Source: Halorhabdus amylolytica (lineage in GTDB: Archaea > Halobacteriota > Halobacteria > Halobacteriales > Haloarculaceae). From it: DNA of 46,443 nt. The position numbers and the translations under genes are program-made. The notes below the pieces were generated by a model. That model worked only from the letters and a program-made list of their open reading frames with translations, was not told where the DNA came from and did not search any database. The first letter of the stretch is position 1, and every line of letters starts with the position of its first letter. The stretch is from contig NZ_SPQG01000001.1 in assembly GCF_004944975.1 (NCBI RefSeq), positions 162,671 through 209,113 on the forward strand, written 5' to 3'. Below are positions 20,034-37,727 of the stretch, piece after piece.

Positions 20034-20036
20034 GGT

Positions 20037-21749: not shown

Positions 21750-21750
21750 C

Positions 21751-23331
21751 TCAGGCTCCCCTCCGTTCGGGCCGGTTCTCGTTGTTCCGTTCGATTGCGT
21801 TGACGACTCTTGCGGTGTTGACGTTTTCCGCTACCTGTTTTCGAGCTGCTCGATTCTCCTGAAGTGCCTGTTGAGCGGCGAGGAACTCACGCTGTCGCTG
21901 TCGTTCCTCCTCACGCATCATCTCGGCTTTCTTTTCAGCCTGCTTTTCTGCCTCTTCGATCCGATCTTCCACGATACCTTCTGTTTCTTCCAGCACGCGC
22001 TCGGTTTCTGCATCGATCTCTTCGAACGCTTCAGCGACGTCCCGTTCGAACTGATCTAATCTCTGTTCGTTTATCCGTTCGTATTTGTCCATGAGATCAC
22101 TCATGACCTCGACGGTGCCTTGCTTTGCACGGGCCTCCGTCTGTAGATCCCGAATCTTCGATCGAATGTCCTTGATCCGTTCCTCGACGGTCCGAATCTC
22201 CTCTCGTTGTTGTTCGTACTCCCGTTCTTTCAACTCGGCTTTTTGATCCTCGATCGATTCGTAAATCTGCCGGCGCTCGTCGTCTTTTTCGATCCAGAGT
22301 TGCTCCCAGACATCGAGAACGATATCGTCCCGAATCCGGTGGCGGGGAATCCCTTCCGATGGTGCGAACGACGACCGGCACGTCTGACAGTACCATTCAC
22401 CGTCGTCACGCACTTCGAGACGTGATTCGATCTCGTCTCTCATACAGTCCGGACAATAGAAGTGATGAGAAACGAGTCCGAACATATCCCCTGCCGTTTG
22501 AATGTGTTCGTTGAGCAATTCTGTCGCCGTCTCCTGGAGGCCAGACAGATCGTTTGCGATGCGACGGCTCTGCTCACTCACGTTGAGCAGCACTGATTCG
22601 CCGTGATCTTCGTTGGCCATCGACTCGAATTCGTCAAACGTCTGCACCTGTTGTGCCGCCTCTTGGCGTGACAATGAGACGCCGCCGGCATCGACAACAC
22701 CCTCGTCGGCTACAGATGCTAGCCGCGAAAGTGATTCGACAGCCGGATCGTCGTTTTGCAGGACTGGTGAGGTGACTTCGTGTGTCTGACTGTTCTCGAT
22801 CTCGGCCTTGATCGAGTTGAGAGTCTCAACGAACTCACTTTCGACGTCCGTTTCCTCAGTCATCACGACGGGAAAATCCTGGATCGAATCGAGCGTCTGT
22901 TCGACGTTCTGAGCACGTTCGGGTTCTTCGAGGAGATTCAATTGAAACTGTTCTGACTTGATCGATTCGGTAGCATCGAAAACGACTGTCCCATCATCGT
23001 CTGGCACCAGATGACCTGTCCAATATCCCGTTTCGACTGACGAAACGGTCACGTCAGGACTTCGAGTGCGGACGTAAGCGCTGGCGCCGACTCCCGCGAC
23101 GATTCCACCCCCAGCTATCAGTAATCCTATCCCCGCTTGGCCAGTCCCAACGAGCGCGATCCCCACGATAGTTGCAACAGTGGCAATCGCGAGAGCGATC
23201 TTTAAATACGACCACTGTTGTTCGTAGTGCTCTTCGAGATCGTTTCCGATCACCTCGTGGATCGCGAGCGCACGGGCTTGTTGTTCGTCCAAACGGTTTG
23301 CATCACTAAATACAACAGACGGTATCCGCAT
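21751..23331 (-). CDS. Membrane-anchored zinc-ribbon and long coiled-coil protein (operon gene A)
   Basis: ORF 21751..23487. Start MRIPSVVF at 23331 preferred (rc verified). Two TM helices (IALAIATVATIVGIALVGTG, IGLLIAGGGIVAGVGASAYV). C4 zinc ribbon (YCPDC...YCQTC). About 170-aa E/R/K-rich coiled-coil tail. Confidence 0.6.
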   Translation of the reverse strand: MRIPSVVFSDANRLDEQQARALAIHEVIGNDLEEHYEQQWSYLKIALAIATVATIVGIALVGTGQAGIGLLIAGGGIVAGVGASAYVRTRSPDVTVSSVETGYWTGHLVPDDDGTVVFDATESIKSEQFQLNLLEEPERAQNVEQTLDSIQDFPVVMTEETDVESEFVETLNSIKAEIENSQTHEVTSPVLQNDDPAVESLSRLASVADEGVVDAGGVSLSRQEAAQQVQTFDEFESMANEDHGESVLLNVSEQSRRIANDLSGLQETATELLNEHIQTAGDMFGLVSHHFYCPDCMRDEIESRLEVRDDGEWYCQTCRSSFAPSEGIPRHRIRDDIVLDVWEQLWIEKDDERRQIYESIEDQKAELKEREYEQQREEIRTVEERIKDIRSKIRDLQTEARAKQGTVEVMSDLMDKYERINEQRLDQFERDVAEAFEEIDAETERVLEETEGIVEDRIEEAEKQAEKKAEMMREEERQRQREFLAAQQALQENRAARKQVAENVNTARVVNAIERNNENRPERRGA

Positions 23332-23633
23332 ATCTGTTAGCCCCTGTCTGAACTTACATAAGTTATTCCCCGATCCATTCACTCCAATTATAGGTATATA
23401 GTAATGTAATAAATCTAATTTAAGGACATATGTAGATAGCCAGATCGGCGATATAATCTGTTGTACTCGATGAAACGTTCTGGTCATATAGTAGATGAGA
23501 AGTAATATAAAATCCGTAGATATATAGAAGAGAACATTTCACTCATCCATATTTTTGATATAAAATATTGCGGCCAAGATCATCCTTCAACTGGAGTGGA
23601 GTCGCCGAGTTGTTGAACGGGGAGTGAAAATAT
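23332..23633 (-). promoter_or_regulatory. Strongly AT-rich intergenic region carrying the presumptive promoter of the four-gene bactofilin operon
   Basis: About 300 bp at roughly 30% GC in a high-GC genome, with multiple TATA-like runs (tatatagtaatgtaataaatctaatttaagg, tatataaaatcc, ttttgatataaaatattg). Lies between the kinase stop and the gene A start. Confidence 0.4.
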
Positions 23634-24953
23634 TCACCCGAACAGCTGTTTCAGCAATGAACTGAGAAGTTCGAGCGAACTTCGATTCGACGAATCAGGA
23701 TCATTTGCGGAGATCGTTGATTTAGTTGTCTGAGAGCGCTGTACTCCTGTCGTCTCATCCGAGACATACTCTCGCTTTAGAGTCCCGGCTGTTTCCCCCT
23801 CGAGCCCGGGTGCACGTGTTCGTCGCTGCCAGGGGAATTCTTGTGAGTTGGAAGTTTGTGACTGCTCACGAATGGTATTCAGAACCCCTGGATCACTCGG
23901 ATCACTGCCGAAGTTACTGCCATCGGTAAAGTCTGCGTGACCGGATCGAGTTTTGGAAGAACCACCAACTGACGTCGTATATTCGTCTTCCGGGCTACAG
24001 ATCAGTGATACCGATTCGTCGAGAGCGACTGCTCGAAACAACGACGTCAAGTCACGTCGAAAGTCGAGCATCGACTCGTACCGATCATCCTTGTGAGTGG
24101 CAAGTGCCGTTCCGAGCACGCCATCGACCGCTGCCGGTAGAGTCGGATCGATCGCAGTCGGTTTCTCGGGCGCGTCTGTCAGATGGCGATCCATCATCGT
24201 CTTCGGAGATCCGGAAAACGGTGGATCTCCAGTCAACAGTTCATAGATGACGGTCCCAAGCTGATAGATGTCAGTCCGTTCATCCGGCGACCCGAGCGTC
24301 TCCGGATCGAACTGCTCCGGCGCTGAATAGCGGGGAGAAAGCCCATCGACCTCTCGGGAGTGATGGAGAAGTTGCTTGGCAAGGCCCCAATCGCTGACTT
24401 TCGGAACATCCCACGTTCGTGGCGTGGTCGTTCTGAACAGAATGTTCGCCGGTTTGAGATCAAGATGTGCGACCCCATGCCGGTGTGCGTTCCGGACGGC
24501 GTCGGCGACGCGTGCACCGATCCAGAGGGACTCACCGATCCCGGTGTTGCCGATACGATCGGTAAGATCCCTTGAATCCATATATTCGAGTGCGATCCAA
24601 GGGACTGGCGTCGTATCCCAGTCGATGACACCGACAATGCCGTCGTGATCATCGAGTTTTTCCCACGTTTCAGCTTCGGATACGACGGTCTGAAGGATCC
24701 GCTCATCGAGAGTCCCCTGAACACGAGGTTGTTTGATTGCGATCACCGTATCCGATTGTGGGTCCTCCATTTTCGTCACGTCGGCGGTCCCACCGCTTCC
24801 GATTTGGCCGCGTTCCTGTAGGGACGAAAAATCGATGTCGACTGTCGGTTTCGTTGGGATCTGTTCCGGGATCGTCGCGTATTCCGATGGGTTTAGATCC
24901 ATGAATTCGAAATCACTTTCAGGAGTCAGCCGATTTGCTCGGAACCATCTCAC
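23634..24953 (-). CDS. Hanks-type Ser/Thr protein kinase
   Basis: Glycine loop and Lys (GQIGSGGTADV...IAIKQ). Catalytic loop HLDLKPANILF. DFG-equivalent (SDWG). APE (SAPEQ). S/T-rich disordered C-terminus. Alternative start MDLNPSEY at 24902. Confidence 0.85.
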   Translation of the reverse strand: MRWFRANRLTPESDFEFMDLNPSEYATIPEQIPTKPTVDIDFSSLQERGQIGSGGTADVTKMEDPQSDTVIAIKQPRVQGTLDERILQTVVSEAETWEKLDDHDGIVGVIDWDTTPVPWIALEYMDSRDLTDRIGNTGIGESLWIGARVADAVRNAHRHGVAHLDLKPANILFRTTTPRTWDVPKVSDWGLAKQLLHHSREVDGLSPRYSAPEQFDPETLGSPDERTDIYQLGTVIYELLTGDPPFSGSPKTMMDRHLTDAPEKPTAIDPTLPAAVDGVLGTALATHKDDRYESMLDFRRDLTSLFRAVALDESVSLICSPEDEYTTSVGGSSKTRSGHADFTDGSNFGSDPSDPGVLNTIREQSQTSNSQEFPWQRRTRAPGLEGETAGTLKREYVSDETTGVQRSQTTKSTISANDPDSSNRSSLELLSSLLKQLFG

Positions 24954-25506
24954 CTGTCATTCTCCGCTCCGATGTCGAGCCAGGAATCGAATGTGGGTTC
25001 GTCTTGATGCCAACTGCCACGGGCACAGTGGCCCGCGGCTTGTCAGTGGACTCGCCGCGTCGTGCCGAACGTCCTGTTCGGTGTTCACGGGTCTGCATTC
25101 CTGACTTCGGGGCCGGTTGACTGCGGCCCGTGATCGACGACAACTGTAGGCCGACGACTACTATCAGAATGATTGGATTCCAGGATGATACAAATTGTGG
25201 ATAGTTCGGCCAGTGTCGGCCTCCTCCCCGCCCACGGTGGGGCGAGGAATCCGTCTTGCTACCTAGTTTGAAACGATGCGAACTTGTGATCATGTGTGTG
25301 ATACAGTCTCGCCGTAAATAGTATTTCTCCCAGCGATTTCTCTGGATTGGACGAGACTGCACTGACAAGTGAAAAATGACCCGTATCTGGTTCACCGCCG
25401 GTGGATTTCGGTTGTTGACCGATCGCGACACTGCTGTATCGCTAGCACTGTTTCCGAGGCGGTTCACCCTTTGGTTCCAATCGCAGACTGAACGAGAGCG
25501 TTGCCC

Positions 25507-26280
25507 TCACTCCATATCCGGAAATCCCTTTCCACATTCGGGACACGATCGAGCTGATTCCGGGACGGGTTCACCACAGTAGAGACAGTACTTGGTGCTT
25601 GGGCGATCGTTCTGTGTCGTGTCTTTCTCCGCACAGTCGGGACATACCGGTCCGGTGTAGATCCCATGCTCCTCACAGATGTTCTGTGTGTCGCCGCTTC
25701 GATCGCCACCGACGTGCATCTCGTTGGCGACAGTATCCTGCACATCGCCAGAGGTCTCACCATCGACTTCGAGTTCCTTGGCGACCACGTCCTCGACAGT
25801 GGTCCGCTCATCGACGTTCCGTTGATCGCCCATCACAACGTCACCATCGGCATCGACGTCGCCGTCGATAATATACTCCTCACGGGCTTCCCGTTCGACA
25901 GTCAATCTGAATTCCGTCTGATAGCCGACCTTCAGCACGGCATCTCGTCTGATTCGTGCGCTGAATCCTTTCTCAAGTTCCTTCTGGTCGCCCTCTGTCC
26001 GGATGTGAACTCCATTCGTGTTCCCCTCATTTCGGACCTCGATACATTCCGACTCTGGCTTGATGACTATCGGGGCTTCGTCACCGCTCTCCCTGGAGAC
26101 CGTGACATCTGCAATGCCGAGTGTAACCGTCCGTCCGTCAGTGTTGACCGTGATCTGTTGACCGTTATCCGGATCACGGTAGATCTCTGTGCGTGTCTCG
26201 ATCGGAATCCGCCCCATATTTGTCTCTTCAGTTGATAAGTATCCGTTCATGCCGTCCTTTGTAATCAGTAGCTGATTCAC
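25507..26280 (-). CDS. FHA-like domain protein with a C-terminal double zinc ribbon
   Basis: N-terminal segment GRTVTLGIADVTVSRESG...NEGNTNGVHI resembles the FHA GR...SR(xH)...NGT core. C-terminal CPDC...C.YCGEPVPESARSCPECG zinc ribbons. Start codon ambiguous (26280, 26250 or 26217). Confidence 0.5.
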   Translation of the reverse strand: MNQLLITKDGMNGYLSTEETNMGRIPIETRTEIYRDPDNGQQITVNTDGRTVTLGIADVTVSRESGDEAPIVIKPESECIEVRNEGNTNGVHIRTEGDQKELEKGFSARIRRDAVLKVGYQTEFRLTVEREAREEYIIDGDVDADGDVVMGDQRNVDERTTVEDVVAKELEVDGETSGDVQDTVANEMHVGGDRSGDTQNICEEHGIYTGPVCPDCAEKDTTQNDRPSTKYCLYCGEPVPESARSCPECGKGFPDME

Positions 26281-26636
26281 GTATAAGAAACTGTAGGACT
26301 ATGTTAACTCAGGTGATACAGAATCCGCTCTTCGAGTTGCGATCGAGCGATACGCTGGAACGTGGGATGGTCTGACGACGTCTACCGTCAGTGAAACATT
26401 GTCGGTAGGAAACTGTCCAAGCGTATACAATCGTTACTCGAACGCGACCAGCAATGCGGACGATGTGGCTGAAGAATTTGATAGTGACTTAGATATGTCA
26501 GAACCATCCATCGAGACAGCACCATCCAATCAAACGAGTTTGGAAGGGGTTAGTTGGGGCTTCCATAGCCATCCCTGCCTGGCCTCGCCGTCCCAAACCT
26601 TGTTGAATTAGAATCGTTTCTCGAAAATCCTCCACG

Positions 26637-28793
26637 TCAGGAGAAATCCAACGCTAATCCAAAGTCTTCGAGGTATAACTGCTCTCCCTTGCCGTTCGCC
26701 TCTATCTGATCGAAGGCTTCCCGCGCTACACGCACGTCGAAGCCCTCGTCCTCGACGACTTCCTCCAACAGCACGCTGTCGACACCCGCCTCCGCAAGAT
26801 AGCCCGATCGAATTGCGTCCACACAGGCCTCGACCCGCTCGGCGTCGACAGGAAGTTCATAGAGTCCACGATTGTGAGCCGCAACGCCGTCGCTCTCGTC
26901 GTAGACCAATTCGCCCGTCGAGAGGTCGACCAGCACCAGACTCAGATTGCGACTGTACCGCGTCCGGGCAATCTCACCGGCCTCAACCTGCTGGATCACC
27001 CGGTCGGTCCACCCCGTCGGCGAAGCCACGCCCAGAAGGTAGTGGTAGTCGTTCTGCTGGGCCTCGTAGACAGCGCTGTTGACGACCGATAGCAGATCGT
27101 CCAGATCGGCAGGCGAAGCGTCGAAGCCATTGGTTACGAAGGCTTCGAGATGGGACAGCGTCGCCGCTTCGATGACCATCTCTCGACTGCGCGAGAGACC
27201 CAACAATTTGGAACTCGTAACGAAATACCTGGCTCGTCGATTGAGCGGGTATTCCTCGGGTGCACCGTCAGCGGGCAGGAGTCGATCGAGTCGACCCCGT
27301 TCGTTGAGATGTTCGCTCCGATCGTCCCAGTAACCAGCCGGCACCTCGAAAGAACCATCAGGAGTTTCCACGACAGTAGCGTCGTAGACCGACGTATCGA
27401 AGCGGCCGATATAATCCATCTCCAACAGACGCGCCAGCGATGTTCCAACCGCGTTCTCGGGCAACTCGGCTTCATCGCCAGCCAGCGATTCCCGGACGTT
27501 CTCGACGTCCGATTCGAGGTCTCGCTGACGATCTTCGAGTTCGTCGCTGGCTTGTTCGAGACCCTTGCGTTCGTCGGCCAAGTCATCGACTTCCGAATCG
27601 AGTTCCTGCTGTGTCGCGGACAACTCACCACGCGCCTCTTCGATCCCTTTACGTTCCCCCGCGAGCTCGTCGATCTCGGCTTCGAGATCGTCCTGACGTT
27701 TTTCGAGCCGATCCCGAGCAACTCGGATCCCCTGCCGTTCGCGTTCGAGACTGTCGATCTCGCTCCGGAGTTGTTCGCGTTGTTCACGGAGTGCTTCCAA
27801 CTCTTCTTCGACGACGGCCGTCGTTTCCTCGCGGGCGGAAGCCCGGGCCTGCTCTTTGGTCTCCGCTTTGACCTGCTCCAGTTGCTCGATCTTTCGTTCG
27901 AGCCGTTCCTCTAACTCCGATGTCCGGTCGATTCTGCGAGTGAACGCTTCGAGCATCGCCTCCTGCTCGGCGGAGATATCCTCGCGTTGCTCCTCAAGCT
28001 GGTTGATCTCGCTTCGTATCTCCGACCGATCGACGGTTTCGCTGGTGACTGTCCGCTCCAATCGCTGGAGTTCAGCTTCGAACGTCCGCTGCTGGCTACG
28101 GATGTCCGACTCGATCTCGGCCGAGAGGGACTCGAACTCGGCCTGGATCTCTTCGCGGATCATCGCGCGTTCATCAGCCGATTCCGAGACAGCTTGGACG
28201 GCTGCCTCGATCGACTCAACCATATGCTCGAGTCCGTGGGTCTCGACGTAGACGAAAAAGCCCTGGCGGATCTTCTCTCGGCGCTCCTGGTAGCGATCCA
28301 GAAGCTTTCGCATGACGTCGCTCTGAACGTCTGGCTCGTCCATCAACTCGTCCATATTGGCGATCTGCGTCGAAGTGTACTCGGTGACAAGTTCGTACAC
28401 CTCTCCTTCCATCCGGCGGATCTTCTCCTCGATCTCGTCCTCCGAGAGCACGTCGAAGCGCTTGTACCGCTCGAACTCCAGAACGGCCTGTAGTTCGGTG
28501 TCGACAAAGTCCTCGGTCATCGCCCGCGGGATTGACCCTTCGTCGTAGAAACTCGCCGCGAGGAGAAGTCGTGCCAGCCGGAAGTCCCCGCGAACGTCCT
28601 CGCGCTCGCTGTCGGTCAGTCGGTCATACTCCTTGGAAAACTCCCAGACGAACTCCTCTTCGTCGGCTTTGATACTGTTGTACCGTTCGATGCGATCGCG
28701 GTCGGGCAACTTCTGTAAGGCGGCCAGATCTTCCTCCAGGACGACCGCCGACTCGTGGGTCAACTCCTCGAAACGCTGTTGGAACTCGCTCAT
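26637..28793 (-). CDS. Large coiled-coil protein with internal tandem about 28-aa repeats and a globular C-terminal domain (hypothetical)
   Basis: 718 aa. Central region has repeated LExERxGIExARxELxxxQxxLxxEIDxL units. No Walker motifs. ATG overlaps the stop of the upstream small gene (ATGA). Confidence 0.6.
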   Translation of the reverse strand: MSEFQQRFEELTHESAVVLEEDLAALQKLPDRDRIERYNSIKADEEEFVWEFSKEYDRLTDSEREDVRGDFRLARLLLAASFYDEGSIPRAMTEDFVDTELQAVLEFERYKRFDVLSEDEIEEKIRRMEGEVYELVTEYTSTQIANMDELMDEPDVQSDVMRKLLDRYQERREKIRQGFFVYVETHGLEHMVESIEAAVQAVSESADERAMIREEIQAEFESLSAEIESDIRSQQRTFEAELQRLERTVTSETVDRSEIRSEINQLEEQREDISAEQEAMLEAFTRRIDRTSELEERLERKIEQLEQVKAETKEQARASAREETTAVVEEELEALREQREQLRSEIDSLERERQGIRVARDRLEKRQDDLEAEIDELAGERKGIEEARGELSATQQELDSEVDDLADERKGLEQASDELEDRQRDLESDVENVRESLAGDEAELPENAVGTSLARLLEMDYIGRFDTSVYDATVVETPDGSFEVPAGYWDDRSEHLNERGRLDRLLPADGAPEEYPLNRRARYFVTSSKLLGLSRSREMVIEAATLSHLEAFVTNGFDASPADLDDLLSVVNSAVYEAQQNDYHYLLGVASPTGWTDRVIQQVEAGEIARTRYSRNLSLVLVDLSTGELVYDESDGVAAHNRGLYELPVDAERVEACVDAIRSGYLAEAGVDSVLLEEVVEDEGFDVRVAREAFDQIEANGKGEQLYLEDFGLALDFS

Positions 28794-29332
28794 GGTTGTT
28801 GGCTCTTCGCGTAATCGCTCAGTTCTCGTTCGAAGTACTCCCCGAGGAACGCCGGTGCCGGTGGATATCCCTCGACCTGTATCTCTACCGCCGTCTCGCC
28901 ACCGTCCTCCTCGAGTGCGTAGCTGATGTCGGCCCGTCCCTTCTTCGTGTAGACCTCGTATTCGTTGTGTGCGGCCGACTGGAGGACCGCCTTCTTCTTC
29001 GAGAGCATGTACTCGACGAACGGTTCGACGGTTTCGGCCGGCGCACTCACCCGTTCCGTGACAGTCGTCCGCTCGGGTTCGGCCGTGACGTCGACTGGCT
29101 CGAGGCGGTAAGCCCGGACTTGCTCTTCGGGGACCTTCGAGACGAGCTGTTCGTACATCTCCTCGAGGTCGACGCCTTCCGCGATCCGGGATAGTCCCGA
29201 CAGCGTCGACACTTCCCCTTCGGCGTTGTCGAAGAGATATTCGACACGCTTGCGCTCGGCATCGGAGTCGTAGTCAACCACGAACAGGAACTCGCCGTTG
29301 CTGTCACTGGCCATTGTCACTGAACTCGTCAC
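28790..29332 (-). CDS. Small acidic hypothetical protein, translationally coupled to the coiled-coil gene
   Basis: 180-aa ORF with a 4-nt overlap to the downstream gene. The N-terminal beta-alpha pattern (EFLFVVDYDSDAERKRVEYLF) is not confidently assignable. Confidence 0.5.
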   Translation of the reverse strand: MTSSVTMASDSNGEFLFVVDYDSDAERKRVEYLFDNAEGEVSTLSGLSRIAEGVDLEEMYEQLVSKVPEEQVRAYRLEPVDVTAEPERTTVTERVSAPAETVEPFVEYMLSKKKAVLQSAAHNEYEVYTKKGRADISYALEEDGGETAVEIQVEGYPPAPAFLGEYFERELSDYAKSQQP

Positions 29333-29644
29333 GTATGGGAAGGCTAGTCGACACCGGTCGTTGTGAACAGCCGGCCGGAACAGCTGACATGCCGATCGAT
29401 ATCATCGCTGTCTAACACCTCCAACGCTATATACAAAAGCTTTTCTCCAATCTGGAGGGGAGTGGTTGGGACGAAACGGTTATCGAGCCCATTAAGAGCG
29501 CATATAGCACCAATACCCGGAATAGCTTGCGAGAGAATTACGTGTCCCAGGTATCTCCAAAAAGGAGACTAAGCGTATCGGCCAGACAGTAGATAAATTT
29601 AAGTGGGTCTATATGGATGTGTGTGATGTGGAGACAGACAGACC
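29333..29644. promoter_or_regulatory. Divergent promoter region between the two island gene arrays
   Basis: 312-bp gap that is AT-richer than the flanks. A TATA-like tctatat lies about 30 nt upstream of the ATG at 29645, consistent with a leaderless transcript. ttttgtatatag is on the opposite strand for the minus-strand array. Confidence 0.35.
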
Positions 29645-29923
29645 ATGTCAATCATGCTTTGGACGGGGATCGTCTTTGCGGTGAACGTCGTGATGGGGGC
29701 GGCCCTCATAGCGGGTGTGTTCACACTGATGGAACGTCGAATCACGGTTGGGGCATTCGGCGGGATCGCAGTCGGTGCCGGGATGATCTACGCAGAGGCG
29801 ACGGTCGGCGAAGACATCTTCAGTCCGACGATCACCGAGATGAAGTTCTTGGTCATTGCAGCGGCGGCAGGTGCGGTGCTCGGTGTAACCGCTGTCTTGC
29901 TGGCAATCGAGCCGGAGTTGTAG
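29645..29923 (+). CDS. Small three-TM membrane protein (first gene of plus-strand operon)
   Basis: 92 aa with three hydrophobic helices rich in G/A/V. Confidence 0.5.
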   Translation: MSIMLWTGIVFAVNVVMGAALIAGVFTLMERRITVGAFGGIAVGAGMIYAEATVGEDIFSPTITEMKFLVIAAAAGAVLGVTAVLLAIEPEL

Positions 29924-29986
29924 CCTATCGAGTACAAACTACTAAGAACAAACCGACTGACACAGATTCATAGGGTATCACAAACC

Positions 29987-30661
29987 ATGCAAGTACGCGA
30001 CTGGGTTCAGGATTATTTCGGCGAATCGGCCAACTCACTGCTTGATGAGGGCGTCTACAGCGACGAAGACCTGCGACGTGACAAGATCAAACTCCGAAAG
30101 CAGCGCAACCGTATCGAAGAGGAGATGAACCAATATTCAAGCGAGTACAAGGAACTCCTCCAGAAGGGGGCACAGGCCAACGAACTCAAACGGGAAACCT
30201 ACGCGAAAAAGGCCCAAATCGCCAAGAAGAAGTACAAACTCAAGAAAAAGCAGTACCAGAAAAACAGTGTCATCCTCGGGACCGTCGTTAGCGTCGAAGG
30301 CGCTCGCGAACTCCAGGACATGCACGACGGCGACTCGACGGAAATCGAGTCGCTCATCAGCGAGCGCGATATCGACGTCGAGTCCGTCCAGGAGGACATG
30401 ATGAACCAGATGGTCGAGTTCGATCTGGACATGGAGTTGATGCAAGAAGTTCAAGATGGACTAGACATCGACATCATGACGAGCGATATCGGGACCGAGG
30501 ACAGCGAGGAGATGGAGATGATGGAAGAGATGGCAGCTGGCAAGATCACAGAAGAGGAGATCGAAGTCGAGGAGACCGTCGAGACCGGGTCAGTCGAAGA
30601 CGTCACTCTAGAGGACGACCTCGAGGAGATCGACATCGAAGACGAAGAGATAGAGATCTGA
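29987..30661 (+). CDS. ESCRT-III/Snf7/PspA-superfamily protein (Snf7-like)
   Basis: By eye, the segment LLQKGAQANELKRETYAKKAQIAKKKYKLKKKQYQKNSVILGTVVSVEGARELQD parallels the Snf7/CHMP4 alpha1-alpha2 core (FLTKGNKVMAKNALKKKKTIEQLLSKVEGTMESMEQ) and the PspA ALxkGxEDLAREAL motif. Basic N-terminal half, strongly acidic C-terminal half, ending in an amphipathic acidic Leu/Ile helix (DVTLEDDLEEIDIEDEEIEI) like a MIM. The Lys-rich stretch is atypical for haloarchaeal proteins. Confidence 0.55.
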   Translation: MQVRDWVQDYFGESANSLLDEGVYSDEDLRRDKIKLRKQRNRIEEEMNQYSSEYKELLQKGAQANELKRETYAKKAQIAKKKYKLKKKQYQKNSVILGTVVSVEGARELQDMHDGDSTEIESLISERDIDVESVQEDMMNQMVEFDLDMELMQEVQDGLDIDIMTSDIGTEDSEEMEMMEEMAAGKITEEEIEVEETVETGSVEDVTLEDDLEEIDIEDEEIEI

Positions 30662-30691
30662 TCAACGGGAGTATCCCGCGGGAGTAACTGT

Positions 30692-31831
30692 ATGATCGAA
30701 TCGGAAGCTCAGAAGGAAATCTTAGAGGACAAGTACGAACAATACCGCGGGAAGGCCGATGCTTATCGAGCAAAAGGCGAAGCCGATCGAGCGGCCCGTT
30801 TCTACCGGAAGGCTGCCGAGACGGTCGACCGTATCGCGGACGTCGAGACCAGCGATACGCTCACCGAAAAGCGCCACGACCTCGCCGAGAACCTCCGGAC
30901 AGCTTCGACTCAACTCGAAGAGACCGGCTCGTTGTCGGATGATTCGCCAGTCGAAAACGAGAACGACGAGTCCGACGACGGAAGTGCAGCTCGATCGACG
31001 GGATCAGCGTCGGAAGAGACGGATCACCCGGATGCAGAGCAATTCCTTGCGGATCCGCCGGAGATGAACTTCGGGGATGTTGGAGGGATGAGCGAACTGA
31101 AGGAGACGCTGAAGGACAAGGTGATCGACCCGCTGGAGCGACCGGAACTGTACGAACAGTACGACCTTGGTGTCGTGAACGCGATCTTGCTGTATGGGCC
31201 ACCGGGAACGGGGAAGACCTACGTTACAGAGGCACTCGCGGGCGAACTCGGTTACAACTTCGTCGATGTCAGAGCGACGGATATCACGAGTTCACTCGTC
31301 GGCGAAGCCGCCGACAACGTCGCGGATCTGTTCACGGTCGCTCGTAATCACCAGCCGTGTCTGGTCTTCATCGACGAGATCGACGCTCTGATGCCTTCCC
31401 GAGTAGGTGGATCCCAGAAGACCCAAAGCCAGCGACAGATGGTCAACCAGTTCCTGACTGAGTTGACCGAGACCCGCGGCGAGGACGTCATCGTCGTGGG
31501 GGCGACGAACCTCCCCGATGAGGTCGACGACGCTGCAGTCAGTCGTTTCCAGGAACGCATCGAGGTACCGCCACCGGGCGCATCGGCACGGGCGGCGATA
31601 CTGCGCGTCCACTTTCGGAGCCGGCCGGTCCTTCACGAAGAGATCGACTGGGACCATATCAAAGATCTGACTTCGGGGTACTCCGCTCGGGATTTGGAGA
31701 TCGTCGCCACGGAAGCTGCCCGGATCGCGCTCGAAGAGGCTCGCGAACGTGACGACCTCCAGCCGATCACCCAAAACCATCTGGCCGAAGCGGTCAACGC
31801 GACTGAACCGTCGCTGTCCGGGGGTGGGTGA
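30692..31831 (+). CDS. AAA+ ATPase with an N-terminal MIT-like three-helix domain (Vps4/CdvC-like, meiotic-clade type)
   Basis: Walker A ILLYGPPGTGKTYV. Walker B CLVFIDEIDAL. Sensor-1 VGATNLPDEVD. SRH AVSRFQERIEVPPP (cf. Vps4 RRFEKRIYIPLP). N-terminal 75 aa YRGKADAYRAKGEADRAARFYRKAAETVDRIADVE...LAENLRTASTQLEE resembles a MIT domain, joined by an acidic linker. Located 30 nt downstream of the Snf7-like gene. Confidence 0.8.
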   Translation: MIESEAQKEILEDKYEQYRGKADAYRAKGEADRAARFYRKAAETVDRIADVETSDTLTEKRHDLAENLRTASTQLEETGSLSDDSPVENENDESDDGSAARSTGSASEETDHPDAEQFLADPPEMNFGDVGGMSELKETLKDKVIDPLERPELYEQYDLGVVNAILLYGPPGTGKTYVTEALAGELGYNFVDVRATDITSSLVGEAADNVADLFTVARNHQPCLVFIDEIDALMPSRVGGSQKTQSQRQMVNQFLTELTETRGEDVIVVGATNLPDEVDDAAVSRFQERIEVPPPGASARAAILRVHFRSRPVLHEEIDWDHIKDLTSGYSARDLEIVATEAARIALEEARERDDLQPITQNHLAEAVNATEPSLSGGG

Positions 31832-31832
31832 T

Positions 31833-32621
31833 GTGCCCGCAAAGACTGGAGCATCGCACGCCGTAGCTGCGTTCGTCAGTATCCTGCTTGGCGGCCTCAT
31901 CAGCGATCTCTTGGGCACGTACGCCACGGCGTTCACCGACCTTGGACGGGTCATCGGCAGGCCCGTTGCCAGTACGATCGGGCTCGCAATACCGGCCACG
32001 ACGACCGGCCATCTCCTGATCGCAACGGTACTCGCTTTCGGCTGGGGTGTCGCCTATCATTACGCCCGACATGGAGACGACGACGGCGAAACCGAGAATG
32101 TGGGAGCTCTTTCGAAGAACAGTGGAGTCGATCACCCCTCGAATCCCGACGACAGTGATGGATCCGAGGCGTTAGCCGGTGTTGTCACGGTCGACTACAC
32201 CCCCGATTCAGCACGGACCGCCGACGCGGAAGTCGGATCGTACCTCGAATCCACACTGCGTGACGACGTTCGCCCCAAATTGGCAGCGACACACGACCTG
32301 CTCGTCGACAGAGAACGACGCGAACTCGCCGAGCGTGTGTCATCACTGGCATCGGACATCGAAACGATCGAGCGAGCAATCTCGCCGTCACTCGAGACGA
32401 CAATGCCCGATCCGGGGCGTCGAAATGGACTCAAAGACTCACACAGTGACCTTCTCGAGACAGTAACGGCTCTCCGGGCGAGCACATCTATTCTTGAATC
32501 CGCACTACGAGAGGGGCAACCCGACGTAGCTATCAAGGAGTGTCGATCCCGATACGAGGAACTGCGCGAGGCCAACGAGCGACGTCGACGACTCATCGAA
32601 CAGGCGAGTGAGACTCTATGA
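31833..32621 (+). CDS. Two-TM membrane protein with a cytoplasmic coiled-coil domain
   Basis: ORF 31749..32621. The only plausible start after the AAA stop is GTG at 31833 (GTGATGTG context), 2 nt after the AAA stop. TM helices AVAAFVSILLGGLISDLLG and HLLIATVLAFGWGVAYHYA. Acidic coiled-coil C-terminus. Confidence 0.5.
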   Translation: MPAKTGASHAVAAFVSILLGGLISDLLGTYATAFTDLGRVIGRPVASTIGLAIPATTTGHLLIATVLAFGWGVAYHYARHGDDDGETENVGALSKNSGVDHPSNPDDSDGSEALAGVVTVDYTPDSARTADAEVGSYLESTLRDDVRPKLAATHDLLVDRERRELAERVSSLASDIETIERAISPSLETTMPDPGRRNGLKDSHSDLLETVTALRASTSILESALREGQPDVAIKECRSRYEELREANERRRRLIEQASETL

Positions 32622-32682
32622 GACAGCCAGAAGCGACCAGGATCGTACAGCCAGCTAACGACCGGGCCGGGAGGAAGCGCCA

Positions 32683-34473
32683 ATGAGTACGTGCCCGAGC
32701 TGTGGGACGACGCTGCCCGACGGTGCGTCGTTTTGCAAACATTGTGGGACGGCACTCGAACAGACCTGTCCGGAATGTGGGACGAGTGTCCCCGGGACGG
32801 CGAACTTCTGTCCGAACTGCCGGGCTGAACTCGGCCACGGCGGCGGAGACAGTCGATCAGTTGACGATGGGGCATTCCGGCTCCAGCCCCACGAGTTCGG
32901 ACGCCGGTTGCTCGGCAGCGATCTCGATGCCGACGGCTTGATCGGATGGTTGACTCGGAAGAAAGAAGTCTCGATCGAGACGGGGAACGAAGCACTGTTC
33001 CTAGAGGAGGGGGAGATCGTCGAACGACTCGGTCCCGGAAAGCACGAACTCGAGTCATTGATCCAGCGGCTGAAAGAGCGCCGTCGGGAACAGGAGTCGA
33101 CGATCATCCTCTATGAGGCTCGTGATACAGTCGTCACGATCGAAGAGGAAGTACGGACGGCCGGAGAGTACCCCGTCGCCGTCCAAGCGGAACTCGTCGT
33201 GACGATCGACGATCCCGTCGAGTTCGCAAAGAGTCTCATGGCTGATCGTGGCGACGTGACTGATCAGACGTTCCAGCGTCTCCTGGGCAGTCCCATTCAG
33301 GACGAGCTCGAAGCCACCCTTGTTGAGTACGACCGCGAGGAGCTGTATGGTAACCGAGAGCTGAAGCGGACCGTCCAACAAGACGTCCGACGGGGGGCTC
33401 GCGAGGCGCTCGAACGGCACGGCCTGGGGCTGGTTTCCCTTCGGTCGCTCTCCTTTGCCGACGATCAAGAGCACATCCGCGAGGGGCGCAAGCAGGTCGA
33501 GATCCGCGAGCAGGAAGAAGACATCAGGGACGACGAGGCCCGACTCGATCGTCGGGAACGTGAACGCGAAACCGAGGACGTTGTCCACGAGGCGAACCAG
33601 CGCGTTCGCCGGGAAACCGCCGAGCAATCGGCCGACCACGAGATCGAGACCCAGGCCATCGAACAGGATCACGAAGTCGACGACAAGCAGCGCCGGCACG
33701 AACAGAAGGCCGAGCGCGAAACCGTCGAACACCAGGAAGAGACGAAGACCACCCGCAAGGAGAAGGAAGTCGAACGTCGAGATCTCGAACACGAGCAGGA
33801 CGTCTCCGAGATGGAAGATCTGATGGACCTCAAGAAGCGCAAGGACATGGACGGCCTCGATATCGAGGAACGCGAGGCCGAAATCGAGATGCGCCGGGAG
33901 GAACACGACGTCGAGATGGAGAAAGAACGGTTGGAAGCCCGTGACGAGGTCGATCTGGAGACACTGGCGAGTATGGATGGCGTCGACGAGGCGGTCGCCG
34001 AACTCGCCGAGATCGAGAAGGCCGAGGACCTCACACCGGCCCAGCTCGAAGCCCTCGGCGCAAAGGACAGCGACGAACTCGCCAAAGCTCGCCAGGAGGC
34101 TCACGACGCCGAAGCACAGCGCGAGCGCGTCGAGGACCAAAAGGAGTTCCGCGAGGAGATCAAGGACATGGCCGAGGATTCGATGGATCAAATGCAGGAA
34201 ACGACCGAGTCCGCGATGGACTCCATGGGCGAAACCGGGCGAGCAGCCGCCGAAGACACCGCTGACAACGTGATCGTCTCCGATACCGGCAGCGACGACA
34301 GCGGTGACACGACGATCGTCCAGGGGGGGTCCGGCAGTCAGGAGGATACCGGTGGGAACACTGACGAAACGGATCGCGGCTCAGGAACCGTCGCATGTCC
34401 GGACTGTGGCAGACAGGTCGACCCCGGGGATGACTTCTGTCTGGATTGCGGCCACGAACTCGGAGGTGAGTGA
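32683..34473 (+). CDS. Zinc-ribbon-flanked SPFH/band-7 (flotillin-like) protein with a long E/R-rich coiled coil
   Basis: N-terminal double zinc ribbon (CPSCG...CKHCG...CPECG...CPNC). Central region ILYEARDTVVTIEEEVRTAGEYPVAVQAELVVTIDDPVEFAK...RELKRTVQQDVRRGAREALERHGLGLVSLRSLSF matches the SPFH/prohibitin core pattern. About 200 aa of charged E/R/D helix. C-terminal zinc ribbon (CPDCG...CLDCGHE). Confidence 0.6.
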   Translation: MSTCPSCGTTLPDGASFCKHCGTALEQTCPECGTSVPGTANFCPNCRAELGHGGGDSRSVDDGAFRLQPHEFGRRLLGSDLDADGLIGWLTRKKEVSIETGNEALFLEEGEIVERLGPGKHELESLIQRLKERRREQESTIILYEARDTVVTIEEEVRTAGEYPVAVQAELVVTIDDPVEFAKSLMADRGDVTDQTFQRLLGSPIQDELEATLVEYDREELYGNRELKRTVQQDVRRGAREALERHGLGLVSLRSLSFADDQEHIREGRKQVEIREQEEDIRDDEARLDRRERERETEDVVHEANQRVRRETAEQSADHEIETQAIEQDHEVDDKQRRHEQKAERETVEHQEETKTTRKEKEVERRDLEHEQDVSEMEDLMDLKKRKDMDGLDIEEREAEIEMRREEHDVEMEKERLEARDEVDLETLASMDGVDEAVAELAEIEKAEDLTPAQLEALGAKDSDELAKARQEAHDAEAQRERVEDQKEFREEIKDMAEDSMDQMQETTESAMDSMGETGRAAAEDTADNVIVSDTGSDDSGDTTIVQGGSGSQEDTGGNTDETDRGSGTVACPDCGRQVDPGDDFCLDCGHELGGE

Positions 34474-34474
34474 C

Positions 34475-35236
34475 GTGGAAGCGATCGACCAGCATCGCAA
34501 GACAGCGTTGGACTCGCCGTACTCTCGGGATCGAGAAGAGGCTATCGAAGCACTGACAACGGCCTTTCCGAGCGCCGACGAACGCGATCAACAGCGGATC
34601 GCCGAGACGCTCCGGGAAGTCGCCCTCGAATCGGCTCATCGTGACGAACGTGAACTGGCTAAGGACCGACTGTTCGACTGTTTTGAAAACGAATCGGGGA
34701 CCATAGACACGGTCCTCGTTGGAATGGTGACCGAGATCGCGACCGAGTCGAAGTTCTCCGAGGAACGTCTCGAGGCCATCGACGCACTCCGAGAGATATA
34801 TTCCGAAATCGGCGAGCACCAACGGGATGTCGTCGGGAAGACGCTGGCAGAGATTGCCGGCAACGCGACCCGCGAAGAGGAGCGCCGAAAGGCCAGGCGT
34901 CGCCTCTCGGATGTGGCACGGACCGAACGCGAAGAGTGTGACACAAGCGACAAGGGGGCCGATGAGGCAGTCGATTATCTCGGGGAGTCGCTGGCCGAGC
35001 ACCTCGAAAACGCGGCCACAAAGTCACGCGAGGCGTGTCTACAGCGCGCTGAAGAATTGTTTGAATTCCTCGATGAACAGCCGCTGGATGACGGCAGTTA
35101 CGAGGAAGTACGGGAGGATGTAAAAGAACTGATGGAAGCGCTAGAGATCGTGGATAGTGAAACGCTGGCTGACGATCGCATCGAGCGCGTCGAGCGGATA
35201 TCCGAGAGGACAAAACGGCTCTATGCACGCGCGTGA
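34475..35236 (+). CDS. HEAT/PBS-lyase-like repeat protein
   Basis: ORF 34304..35236. GTG at 34475 lies 2 nt after the upstream stop. Repeated helical hairpins of the form DEReeAiEALtt.....ErdqqRIAEtLrEVA. Confidence 0.5.
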   Translation: MEAIDQHRKTALDSPYSRDREEAIEALTTAFPSADERDQQRIAETLREVALESAHRDERELAKDRLFDCFENESGTIDTVLVGMVTEIATESKFSEERLEAIDALREIYSEIGEHQRDVVGKTLAEIAGNATREEERRKARRRLSDVARTEREECDTSDKGADEAVDYLGESLAEHLENAATKSREACLQRAEELFEFLDEQPLDDGSYEEVREDVKELMEALEIVDSETLADDRIERVERISERTKRLYARA

Positions 35237-35555: not shown

Positions 35556-37727
35556 TCACTCGCCGACGATCGGAAGCGTGACAACGACGTGAGTTCCACG
35601 AGCCGCGTCGGCGAATCGCAGGGACCCGCCAGCGTGACTGATGCTATATCGAGCGAGCCAGAGGCCGAGACCAGTTCCGTGTACCACGGGACTCTGCTCG
35701 ACTTGATCTGTCAGTACGGCCTGCTCTTTCGGCGGAATGCCCGGACCGTTGTCCCGGATGTCGATCCGTACCGCGTTGCCATCACGACTGACCTCGACTG
35801 TCACACGTGGCGTATCACTGTCGTTGTGGTCGATTCCGTTTTCGATAAGTTCCGTAAAGGCGTCCTCGAGGATTGGCACTGCTTTGATTTTGACGTCGAT
35901 CGAACAGTGAACGTCGATCTCCGCTTCAGGCGATGACGCTTGGACCGTTTGGATGGCCGCCGAGAGTAACGGCGTGAGAGACATGATCGTCCGTTCGGTG
36001 TTGCCGGTAAGCAGCTCAACAATGTGCCGCTCGGTGTTGATGAGATCGATCACCTCGGTGCCGGTCGTCAAGATCCGATCGGCGGCATCCGAAAGTGTGC
36101 CCTGCGTCTGTTCCCGTAGTACCTCAGCGTTCCCGGTGATGACGTTGAGATCGTTCCGAAGGTTGTGTCGCAGAACGCGACTGAGGACTTGTAGTTGGCG
36201 TTCGCGATTTTTCCGCTGGGTGATGTCCCGGCTGATTGCGACAGTCCCGACAATAGTCCCGGTCCCGTCATAATGTGGATATCGCGTCGTGACGAATGCG
36301 CGTTCTCCGCCGCCTCGAAGTGTTGGTGAGATGGTGTAGTCGATCGCATCTTCTCGTTTGAGTACACGCGTCTTCATTTGCTGGATACGCTCGGCTGTCT
36401 CGTCGTCCATGAACGCAAACTCGTCAGCGCCGAGTAGTTCCGAACGTGGGAGTCCAGCATACTCGACGACGGCATCGTTAACGATCTGGAACGCCCCGTC
36501 TCGATCTTGAAGCATGATCGGGTCCTCGACCCGCTGGACGATCTCCTCGTAGGTCGCGAGTTCGGCCGTCGCTTCTACTCGATCGGTGATGTCGATGAAG
36601 ACTGCTGCGATCCGTTTCCCGTCCAGGGGGTAGGAGGTCACCCGATGGTGCTGATCGAGTGGTTCCGAATAGGCTTCGAAATCGACCCGTTTCCCGTTCA
36701 GTGCAACATCGCCGTACCGAGTGATGAACGGATCCTCGGTCGGATCTTCTGGCAGATCGAACACATCGCTACCTCTTTTCCCCTGAATCTCCTCGGCTTT
36801 GAGTCCCGTGATTCGCTCGAAAGCAGTGTTGACGTCCTCGAACACGTAGTCCACAGCCCGTCCGTCTTCCTCGGTAATGACTCGCTGGATCGCGATCCCG
36901 TTTATGGCGTCCCGAAAGAGCTGTCGGTACGCTCCATCGTCTAGTACTCCATTGTCGCTCTCGCTTTGCCGGGAGGCCGTCGCTTTCGGTTGTGTCCTTT
37001 CACATCCAGTGAGAACGATGACCGCCGCTGGGGCGTTTTGCCAGTTGATTGCGGTCGCGACGTAATCAACCACCCACTGTTGCCCGTCTGCCGTCGTGAT
37101 CGACGCTGTTCCGGAATCGAATACACACTCGCCAGTGGTGATTCGCCGCGTCCACGTTTCAAGGTCGCTAACACCAGGGTCGAACTCGACTGACGATCTG
37201 ACGTCAGTTCCTTCGTCGGTTTCAGCCGGACCGAATTTGACTGTAGCACGACAATTGGCGTAGGTGACGTCTCCCTCTTGACAGACGAAAATCGGGTCCG
37301 GCGCACCATCCAAAATCCCGCCACGGGTCGGTACCGGAGCGGATCGGGTCCGATAGCGTCGGGCAACAGCTTCAATCAGCGACGCCACAGTTTCGATCTC
37401 GTCTTCTGGCGTCACGATATCGGTCGGTCGGGCTGCACTCACCCGATCAACGACCGCGGCGTTTTGCCCTTTGACTCGGACGAATACTGGCAGGACGGGG
37501 TCCAGTGCTCGGGTGATTTCGAGGAGAGTGACCCCATCGACATCAGGGGACGTGGTATCACAAATGAGACAATCGACTGTAGCTGTCTGAAGCTGTTCGA
37601 TCACAGTTTTGATGGTTTTTTCCGCCACGACGTGCATACCGTCCCGCCCAGTGATCTGTGCGATCAATCCATCAGTGGTCCCCGTATCCATTACTGTGAG
37701 GGTCCGAAGGGGCGAGTCCGGTACCAT
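35556..37727 (-). CDS. Multi-PAS sensor histidine kinase with an N-terminal receiver-like domain (hybrid/HTR-like)
   Basis: N-terminal CheY-like fold (VDCLICDTTSPDVDGVTLLEITRAL). Several PAS blocks. H-box VLSRVLRHNLRNDLNV. HATPase_c G-boxes (DNGPGIP, GTGLGL). Confidence 0.8.
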   Translation of the reverse strand: MVPDSPLRTLTVMDTGTTDGLIAQITGRDGMHVVAEKTIKTVIEQLQTATVDCLICDTTSPDVDGVTLLEITRALDPVLPVFVRVKGQNAAVVDRVSAARPTDIVTPEDEIETVASLIEAVARRYRTRSAPVPTRGGILDGAPDPIFVCQEGDVTYANCRATVKFGPAETDEGTDVRSSVEFDPGVSDLETWTRRITTGECVFDSGTASITTADGQQWVVDYVATAINWQNAPAAVIVLTGCERTQPKATASRQSESDNGVLDDGAYRQLFRDAINGIAIQRVITEEDGRAVDYVFEDVNTAFERITGLKAEEIQGKRGSDVFDLPEDPTEDPFITRYGDVALNGKRVDFEAYSEPLDQHHRVTSYPLDGKRIAAVFIDITDRVEATAELATYEEIVQRVEDPIMLQDRDGAFQIVNDAVVEYAGLPRSELLGADEFAFMDDETAERIQQMKTRVLKREDAIDYTISPTLRGGGERAFVTTRYPHYDGTGTIVGTVAISRDITQRKNRERQLQVLSRVLRHNLRNDLNVITGNAEVLREQTQGTLSDAADRILTTGTEVIDLINTERHIVELLTGNTERTIMSLTPLLSAAIQTVQASSPEAEIDVHCSIDVKIKAVPILEDAFTELIENGIDHNDSDTPRVTVEVSRDGNAVRIDIRDNGPGIPPKEQAVLTDQVEQSPVVHGTGLGLWLARYSISHAGGSLRFADAARGTHVVVTLPIVGE

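Follow-up and report, generated by a model that had tools for sequence, protein, structure and literature searches.

A haloarchaeal gene cluster of Halorhabdus amylolytica that probably encodes an ESCRT-type membrane-remodelling system with an added SPFH module

[quoted passage not shown] This functional reading turned out to be largely right, but the basis for the ESCRT-III assignment, the identity of the sixth protein and the size of the unit needed correcting. The conserved system comprises about 15 genes (18723-35236) rather than six, and it is probably a haloarchaeal ESCRT-type membrane-remodelling system in which a core of the Main/Halo_FHA kind is accompanied by an extra SPFH module. 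What is observed directly is which genes are present, how they are conserved from locus to locus and which domains they encode. The six open reading frames (ORFs) of the row are present on the plus strand at the coordinates reported before, with the same intergenic gaps (63, 30, 1, 61 and 1 nucleotides) and the same GTG starts for the fourth and the sixth, and we refer to them as g1 to g6:

29645-29923, plus strand: g1, small membrane protein of 92 amino acids with two to three transmembrane helices (WP_136686780.1)
29987-30661, plus strand: g2, ESCRT-III-like protein of 224 amino acids (WP_136686782.1)
30692-31831, plus strand: g3, Vps4-like AAA ATPase of 379 amino acids (WP_136686784.1)
[quoted passage not shown]
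32683-34473, plus strand: g5, zinc-ribbon/SPFH protein of 596 amino acids (WP_136686789.1)
34475-35236, plus strand: g6, helical protein of 253 amino acids with a GTG start (WP_136686791.1, 256 amino acids in RefSeq)

Five of the six products (g1 to g5) are identical to RefSeq proteins of H. amylolytica, and the RefSeq start of g6 is a different GTG located 9 nucleotides upstream (34466), which overlaps the stop codon of g5. The row had also been placed inside a block of lower GC content. This is true of the whole cluster 18723-35236, with 56.6% GC against 63.6% in the left flank and 60.4% in the right flank, but not of the six genes alone, which with 59.3% hardly differ from the mean of the window (59.8%).

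The ATPase g3 has a three-helix N-domain (residues 2-78), which an acidic and disordered linker (84-111) connects to an AAA domain and its lid; the last two match Pfam AAA (E=6e-38) and AAA_lid_3. Its Walker A and B motifs are intact, and 30 orthologs show no variation in GPPGTGKT, FIDEID or the arginine finger R285. Among the NCBIfam models, CdvC scores best and covers residues 9-375, and the identification of g3 as a Vps4-like ATPase is supported by the presence of WP_136686784.1 in a published Vps4 tree (see below). Some sources name the g3 orthologs 'transitional endoplasmic reticulum ATPase'. In the case of the N-domain, the AlphaFold2 model contains helices at 2-27, 31-51 and 55-78 with a predicted local distance difference test (pLDDT) score of 83-91, and a profile search of the PDB retrieved the MIT structures of CdvC/Vps4 in the correct position (2v6y, E=0.0042; 2w2u, E=0.012; 4lcb, E=0.051), with designed TPR repeats ranking above them. 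Furthermore, CdvC was the sole NCBIfam match of the N-domain on its own (E=0.019), and an hhalign comparison with MIT sequences gave E=3e-4 and a probability of 38%, with the same +4 offset. Pfam MIT did not match g3, only TPR motifs appearing at E ~0.007, and the first 130 residues, used alone as the query of a database search, found no matches; Foldseek on the full protein was unable to test the domain because the AAA core (Msp1, p97, FIGNL1) dominated the results. These results, each of them marginal, agree with one another and suggest weakly but consistently that the N-domain is MIT-like. Of the MIT-type N-terminus proposed in the earlier note, the predicted fold and the CdvC MIT structures speak in favour and the Pfam MIT family does not.

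The AlphaFold2 model of g2 shows a short N-terminal helix (2-11), an alpha1/alpha2 hairpin of 38 and 49 residues (26-63 and 66-114) with a pLDDT of ~80, and three shorter helices (117-126, 131-159 and 171-183). When this model was compared by Foldseek with 350,542 PDB chains, the best 24 matches all belonged to the ESCRT-III superfamily, with weak E values (0.016-0.6); these were Vipp1, CHMP1B, Snf7, Shrub, Asgard ESCRT-IIIB and CHMP2A/3, the best being Vipp1 (7o3w). The distribution of charge is markedly uneven, with a net +8 in the hairpin (26-114) and -43 in residues 115-224. The predicted helix 2-11 (QVRDWVQDYF) is an N-terminal amphipathic helix with conserved aromatics, and another short helix at ~174-185 is nearly invariant in the family, which comprises 34 clusters at 90% identity and, by an exhaustive HMMER search, 80 representative clusters; a scan of a genome collection had yielded two loci only, because the patterns used were narrow. 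According to the published annotation, the Natronomonas counterpart of g2, which occupies the same place in the same gene order, is arCOG07402, 'ESCRT-III/Snf7 family' (PMC10936438). It is on the predicted architecture, the gene context and this arCOG assignment, and not on a profile match, that g2 is assigned here. The filament-type Snf7-like subunit proposed before is thus sustained in its predicted ESCRT-III-type architecture and not in any Snf7 or PspA profile.

The earlier note left it uncertain whether comparative surveys had recorded such a locus, and it knew of no characterised one. In fact, the comparative survey of archaeal ESCRT systems by Makarova et al. (2024; mBio, PMC10936438) had described the system and included this same ATPase: its Vps4 tree, rooted with Cdc48, holds WP_136686784_1 beside Halapricum and Natronomonas entries and the Halo_FHA representative, and its Table S1 gives WP_136686774.1, which by exact accession match is the product of window positions 25507-26217, as the arCOG13166 ESCRT component. 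In the Natronomonas moolapensis locus of that survey, arCOG09748 (664 amino acids) and arCOG08177 (179 amino acids), both on the minus strand, are followed by an unnamed membrane protein of 92 amino acids, arCOG07402 (221 amino acids), Vps4 (383 amino acids) and then a PP2C phosphatase and kinases. Kinases were reported for both the Main and the Halo_FHA ESCRT loci, and the role proposed for the kinase-linked systems was to form vesicles and to sort phosphorylated cargo rather than to divide the cell. SPFH, coiled-coil and zinc-ribbon proteins were reported for the Meth_adaptin clade only, and the part of Table S2 examined contains no Halorhabdus or Halapricum neighbourhood (PMC10936438). The claim of an unnoticed system consequently fails, as the core discovery is already published.

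We compared eight related loci (L001-L008, seven of them distinct as L001 and L002 are counted together). Five relatives out of the seven distinct ones (L001/L002, L003, L004, L005 and L007) share the order g1-g2-g3 together with the two divergent upstream genes, while L006 and L008 retain g2-g3 and the gene for the 718-residue protein described below. The earlier note would have given up its reading if the order were conserved in no other genome; it recurs in several, and because of this conservation the row is more than chance. The 718-residue protein (at E<=1e-130), g2 and g3 are present in all eight loci, g2 lying beside the ATPase in each, the arCOG08177-type protein is present in seven and g1 in six, and the FHA-type protein and the kinase appear in every related locus long enough to show them. 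PP2C phosphatases are found in sister loci. With regard to the SPFH gene, the order g3-(g4)-g5-g6 exists also in Halapricum desulfuricans, and g5 lies downstream of the ESCRT core in Haloplanus. A metagenome search for g5 gave 14 contigs. In 6 of them the ATPase gene immediately precedes g5, g4 being present between the two or not, and most of the others are too short on the upstream side of g5 to judge; g6 follows g5 directly in 9 of the 14. There is no ATPase directly upstream in L015 (6575 nucleotides), which has a g5 relative alone, nor in L017 (12586 nucleotides), where g6 is upstream of g5 and a gene of the 718-residue type is 4.5 kb off, so that the linkage of SPFH and ESCRT genes is frequent and not absolute.

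In the protein encoded by g5, a pair of zinc ribbons at the N-terminus is followed by an SPFH/Band 7 domain (~97-255), then by a charged stretch of ~250 amino acids and finally by a C-terminal zinc ribbon; the ribbons are recognised by Pfam at E=4e-18. Full-length g5 matched Band_7_1 only (E=0.017), and the SPFH domain exceeds the Pfam cut-off once the charged repeat region is left out of the scan: residues 90-272 alone reach 40.7 bits for Band_7 (E=3e-10, cut-off 23.6), and two full-length orthologs pass it with 36.0 and 32.6 bits, in agreement with the description of g5 as a zinc-ribbon SPFH protein in the earlier note. A profile search of the PDB gave marginal matches only (prohibitin, E=0.24). 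No hydrophobic 19-residue window of g5 reached the threshold for a transmembrane segment.

The product of g6 had been taken for a HEAT-repeat protein. This possibility was rejected, as no HEAT family matched g6 or its Halapricum ortholog at E<=1, and the weak HEAT_2 match of the cluster belongs to the gene at 18723-20033. Its C-terminal ~80 residues are instead homologous to the 'CdvA-like' domain of the arCOG13166 proteins: BLASTP gave 34% identity (E=3e-12) with the C-terminus of the protein that follows Vps4 in L001, and jackhmmer connected g6 to L001, L004, L006 and L008. The similarity of that domain to CdvA has itself a published HHpred probability of just 53% (PMC10936438).

The two remaining products of the row have hydrophobic segments, at residues 8-26 and 68-86 in g1 and at 10-28 in g4, and so both are membrane proteins as previously stated. 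Full-length or near-full-length relatives of g4 lie between g3 and g5 in L007, L012, L016 and L021; elsewhere it gives short partial matches or is absent (L010, L019). Scans of g1, g2, g4 and g6 against Pfam, NCBIfam and PADLOC gave nothing usable, g4 having no Pfam match. One source calls WP_136686787.1 (g4) a 'ribonuclease P Rpr2/Rpp21/SNM1 subunit family protein', which looks like a misannotation because the Pfam and NCBIfam scans give it no support.

In addition to g1-g6, the unit of about 15 genes contains an arCOG09748-like protein, an arCOG08177 protein, an FHA/zinc-ribbon protein, a Ser/Thr kinase and four further genes:

18723-20033, minus strand: membrane protein of 436 amino acids with about five hydrophobic segments and, at the C-terminus, a weak match to HEAT_2; its gene is outermost in the cluster
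20037-20822, minus strand: bactofilin-like protein of 261 amino acids (WP_136686766.1; Pfam Bactofilin E=0.0021, below the cut-off)
20823-21749, minus strand: coiled-coil protein of 308 amino acids (WP_136686768.1; generic coiled-coil Pfam matches only)
21751-23487, minus strand: protein of 578 amino acids with a hydrophobic segment at ~95-136, no Pfam match and an ortholog in Halapricum L007 only
23634-24953, minus strand: Ser/Thr protein kinase, ORF of 439 amino acids (Pfam Pkinase, E=5e-31)
25507-26217, minus strand: protein of 236 amino acids with an FHA-type N-domain and a C-terminal zinc ribbon, the latter according to Pfam (WP_136686774.1, arCOG13166)
26637-28793, minus strand: coiled-coil protein of 718 amino acids, arCOG09748 counterpart (WP_136686776.1)
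28790-29314, minus strand: arCOG08177-type protein of 174 amino acids with inactivated Cas2-like and TBP/DUF3568 domains (WP_136686778.1)
29315-29644, no strand: divergent intergenic region with the presumed promoters of both operons

The 718-residue protein has the same position and strand as the arCOG09748 protein of N. moolapensis and a size of 718 against 664 amino acids, and arCOG09748 is defined as an 'ESCRT system protein with C-terminal wHTH' (winged helix-turn-helix; PMC10936438). The 174-residue protein had no Pfam match, and it contains the motifs VVDYDSDAERKRVEY and SKKKAVLQSAAHNEYEVYTKKG, which are shared with the published arCOG08177 alignment. The N-terminal ~100 residues of WP_136686774.1 match the N-domain of the protein located after Vps4 in L001, L004, L006 and L008, Pfam FHA being undetected in it at E<=1. 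Relatives of the 308-residue coiled-coil protein were found by jackhmmer in the other long loci that bear g5 (L003, L005 and L007), whereas the bactofilin-like gene is restricted, among the fetched loci, to the Halapricum cluster. The HEAT_2 match of the 436-residue protein (E=1.3e-4, 22.6 bits) stays under the cut-off of 27.7, and the ortholog of this protein ends the collinear Halapricum cluster L007. No PP2C phosphatase was found among the cluster genes in the window. The intergenic region 29315-29644, presumed to hold promoters for the two operons, includes the A/T-rich stretch ATAAATTTAAG ~45 nucleotides upstream of the g1 ATG.

In Halapricum desulfuricans (L007, 14687-21209), six genes, from the FHA/zinc-ribbon gene to the gene with the transmembrane and HEAT-like regions, come after g6 on the same strand, and by this collinearity the block 18723-26280 is inverted in the window, where it lies upstream of the 718-residue gene. 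A repeat search around the cluster gave matches at chance level only, with no flanking repeats that explain the inversion relative to Halapricum. The immediate flanks are housekeeping genes, no tRNA was found in the window, and the flank ORFs scanned have no integrase or transposase domains; a prophage or integrative element was rejected since no tRNA, integrase or viral match appeared in what was scanned.

Several other features of the window and of the related loci deserve to be recorded. An ORF of 182 amino acids in the NCBI annotation (24919-25467, minus strand) overlaps the kinase gene and carries a net charge of +19 where the other proteins are acidic; none of the related loci has an equivalent of it, and the ORF is unlikely to be a real gene. 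In Haloquadratum walsbyi (L008, 12467-17047), the kinase adjacent to the core is a fusion of 1526 amino acids between a Ser/Thr kinase and a UvrD-type helicase, and in the metagenomic locus L001 (1-3236 and 12123-16699) the ESCRT core is surrounded by Ser/Thr kinases, four or more in number, that carry fused PQQ/beta-propeller repeats. A receiver/PAS/histidine-kinase protein (35556-37727, minus strand) is convergent to g6, and in the locus of the uncultured A07HN63 (L006, 13749-14813) a PAS histidine kinase comes after the Ser/Thr kinase; a histidine-kinase neighbour of ESCRT loci may be due to chance or may be recurrent. A mechanosensitive channel and stress-type sensor kinases are encoded near the cluster. 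Finally, the GC content of positions 1-2000 of the window is 51-53%, and an ORF of 337 amino acids located there (256-1269), with no Pfam match, is beside the gene for the large subunit of carbamoyl-phosphate synthase.

According to the gene content, the ESCRT-type system could work as follows. The ESCRT-III-like protein g2 would attach to the membrane by means of the amphipathic helix at its N-terminus and the basic hairpin, and would polymerise like ESCRT-III/PspA, its acidic C-terminal half keeping it soluble, and the conserved helix at ~174-185 may dock onto the MIT-like N-domain of g3, hexamers of which would spend ATP in pulling out subunits, thereby turning over or constricting the g2 polymer. 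The SPFH protein g5, with g1 and g4, could mark or scaffold the membrane patch where g2 assembles, a role analogous to that of YdjI in localising PspA in Bacillus subtilis. The CdvA-like g6, the 718-residue winged-helix-type protein and the Cas2/TBP-like protein would be adaptors or nucleators, and the Ser/Thr kinase and the FHA/zinc-ribbon protein could make either assembly or the choice of cargo dependent on phosphorylation. Halobacteria divide with FtsZ/SepF, and for this reason the likely output would be vesicle budding, protein sorting or membrane repair and not cytokinesis; a role in cell division was rejected. The most likely function is phospho-regulated membrane remodelling rather than cell division, regulation by phosphorylation being suggested because of the kinase, the arCOG13166 FHA protein and the PP2C phosphatases of the sister loci. 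As for vesicles, Halorubrum lacusprofundi and some other vesicle-producing archaea have zero ESCRT genes (PMC10936438).

A number of results weigh against an ESCRT-type system. Pfam Snf7 and PspA (PF03357 and PF04012) did not match g2 at E<=1, nor did they match 55 relatives at E<=0.01, with no such match in any of the 56 family members scanned; this empty result is, taken literally, the first of the outcomes that the earlier note had named as refuting its proposal. Two profiles of the g2 family run by hmmsearch against the PDB sequences retrieved no ESCRT-III protein, an hhalign comparison of the family with five eukaryotic ESCRT-III sequences reached a probability of 11%, and the mean pLDDT of the whole g2 model is just 60. 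Furthermore, g2 contains no proline and hence no MIM2 (the second type of MIT-interacting motif), and its conserved helix misfits the MIM1 consensus. With respect to g3, it reaches 176 bits with the CdvC model, whose cut-off is 650 bits, and scores nearly as high with those of CDC48 (173), PAN (171) and FtsH (169), and Pfam did not detect the Vps4_C domain that the earlier note had suggested looking for, its C-terminal 90 residues matching AAA_lid_3 alone. Vps4 and CdvC carry an aromatic pore loop, KW(M/L)G; pore loop 1 of g3 (residues 201-205, window 31292-31306) is SSLVG, aliphatic and invariant in the 30 orthologs. The second region of homology (residues 283-285, window 31538-31546) reads SRF, with serine in place of one of the two arginines, in the lineage of Halorhabdus, Halapricum and Haloplanus, and RRF in most of the other orthologs. 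Finally, no experimental study of any haloarchaeal ESCRT system was found in the literature searched.

Other explanations of the cluster have to be considered. It could be an envelope-stress and membrane-repair module in the style of PspA/Vipp1, in which g2 would coat damaged membrane and seal it, g5, g1 and g4 would recruit g2 and g3 would recycle g2, so that the machinery would be shared with the ESCRT-type system and the biological output alone would differ. Such a module would be in accordance with Vipp1 (7o3w) as the top Foldseek match of g2, and small membrane or zinc-ribbon proteins combined with a PspA-like and an SPFH protein parallel PspA-YdjGHI of B. subtilis (PMC10936438). The mechanosensitive channel and the stress-type sensor kinases nearby would fit as well. 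However, g2 lacks a PspA_IM30 profile match, and we know of no bacterial Psp system with an MIT-type AAA disassemblase. The YdjI-PspA link has likewise been described without such an enzyme, and winged-helix, CdvA-like, FHA and kinase components belong to the archaeal ESCRT systems described there (PMC10936438). We consider an envelope-stress module unlikely.

It is far less probable that the cluster is an anti-virus defence or exclusion island, with a kinase/FHA sensor that triggers the AAA ATPase and membrane-active effectors. Its distribution among haloarchaea is patchy, with different neighbours and arrangements in Halapricum and Halorhabdus, its GC content is slightly low, and transposases and an antitoxin adjoin the N. 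moolapensis locus; yet its own immediate flanks are housekeeping genes in which no integrase was found, and the viral contigs scanned contain zero g2 relatives. The match of g3 to the PADLOC IetA models (118 bits) would speak for such an island but spans only the generic AAA core, and the eight genes scanned include no protease partner and no other meaningful PADLOC match. The IetAS anti-phage system was rejected on this basis, the IetS protease not having been found. Even more improbable, in our opinion, is that g2 only serves a Cdc48-like quality-control unfoldase, as an adaptor or substrate of generic coiled-coil type, without any remodelling of membranes. The lack of a Snf7/PspA profile match in g2 would agree with it, and so would the VAT/p97 D2 domains that are the best PDB sequence matches of g3 and the name of transitional endoplasmic reticulum ATPase given to its orthologs, but the top of the Foldseek ranking of g2 is occupied exclusively by ESCRT-III proteins, its charge pattern and aromatic N-terminal helix are ESCRT-III-like, the N-domain of g3 is MIT-like and not VAT-N-like, and genes for membrane proteins and an SPFH protein lie in tight linkage with the core.

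Returning to the ESCRT-type system as the preferred reading, we also contemplate, as a rather doubtful extension, that the SPFH-bearing form is a distinct and undescribed ESCRT subtype consisting of the core plus g4, g5, g6 and the 308-residue coiled-coil protein. In this subtype, an SPFH assembly docked via the small membrane proteins would define the patch that nucleates a divergent ESCRT-III under the control of the kinase and the FHA protein. If this were true, there would be a direct and genetically linked SPFH-ESCRT-III-Vps4 machine in an archaeon that divides with FtsZ, and the bacterial link between PspA and flotillins would be tied to a Vps4-driven cycle of the eukaryotic type.

Since the core discovery was published before, the value of this work is refinement and not first sighting, and three points are modestly new. 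One is the pair of g5 (SPFH) and g6 downstream of the Vps4-like gene, here, in two cultured relatives and in 6 of the 14 metagenomic contigs, with an inverted arrangement in one more, which we did not find described in PMC10936438; another is the presence of the FHA and CdvA-like domains on separate proteins in the SPFH-bearing loci; and the last is the set of departures of the ATPase from canonical Vps4, namely its aliphatic pore loop, the single arginine of its second region of homology in this lineage and the missing Vps4_C domain. Haloarchaeal ESCRT systems are known from comparative genomics only, and this locus comes from a species that has a name and a deposited genome; the candidate parts that it provides form a compact set suited to pairwise interaction tests: an ESCRT-III-like protein, an MIT-like AAA ATPase, an SPFH scaffold, a CdvA-like adaptor and an FHA/kinase switch. 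From the tight linkage of the SPFH gene comes, in addition, a concrete hypothesis on the way in which the polymer could be targeted to the membrane.

Among the known systems, CdvABC resembles the cluster in having an ESCRT-III-like protein upstream of an MIT-AAA ATPase, in that the best PDB matches of the g3 N-domain outside designed repeats are the MIT domains of CdvC/Vps4, and in the weakly CdvA-like helical domain of g6. However, g2 is not CdvB, as it has no Snf7 profile match, proline or MIM2, g3 falls far below the CdvC cut-off (176 against 650 bits), the host divides with FtsZ, and the window cluster has kinase, FHA and SPFH components in addition. The Meth_adaptin type of Methanobacteriales differs in that no adaptin-appendage, GOLD or ProX protein was found among the window genes scanned, and in that the Vps4 of the window stands among entries from Halobacteria near the Halo_FHA representative (PMC10936438). 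[quoted passage not shown] The likeness is one of possible working and not of family, as g2 has no PspA_IM30 match, and the cluster differs further by its Vps4-like ATPase and by a g5 with no membrane anchor of its own. In the case of the Main and Halo_FHA systems, the differences are the insertion of g4, g5 and g6 after Vps4 in this sub-lineage, the four more genes present here (those of 578 amino acids, the 308-residue coiled coil, the bactofilin-like protein and the protein with transmembrane and HEAT-like regions), the PP2C phosphatase that is missing among the window cluster genes, and the fusion of FHA to a zinc ribbon with the CdvA-like domain on g6, where L001, L004, L006 and L008 have both on one protein. 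On the other hand, the core gene set and its order are those of N. moolapensis, with Ser/Thr kinases nearby (PMC10936438), and Vps4, ESCRT-III, arCOG09748, arCOG08177, arCOG13166 and a kinase are all found in one neighbourhood.

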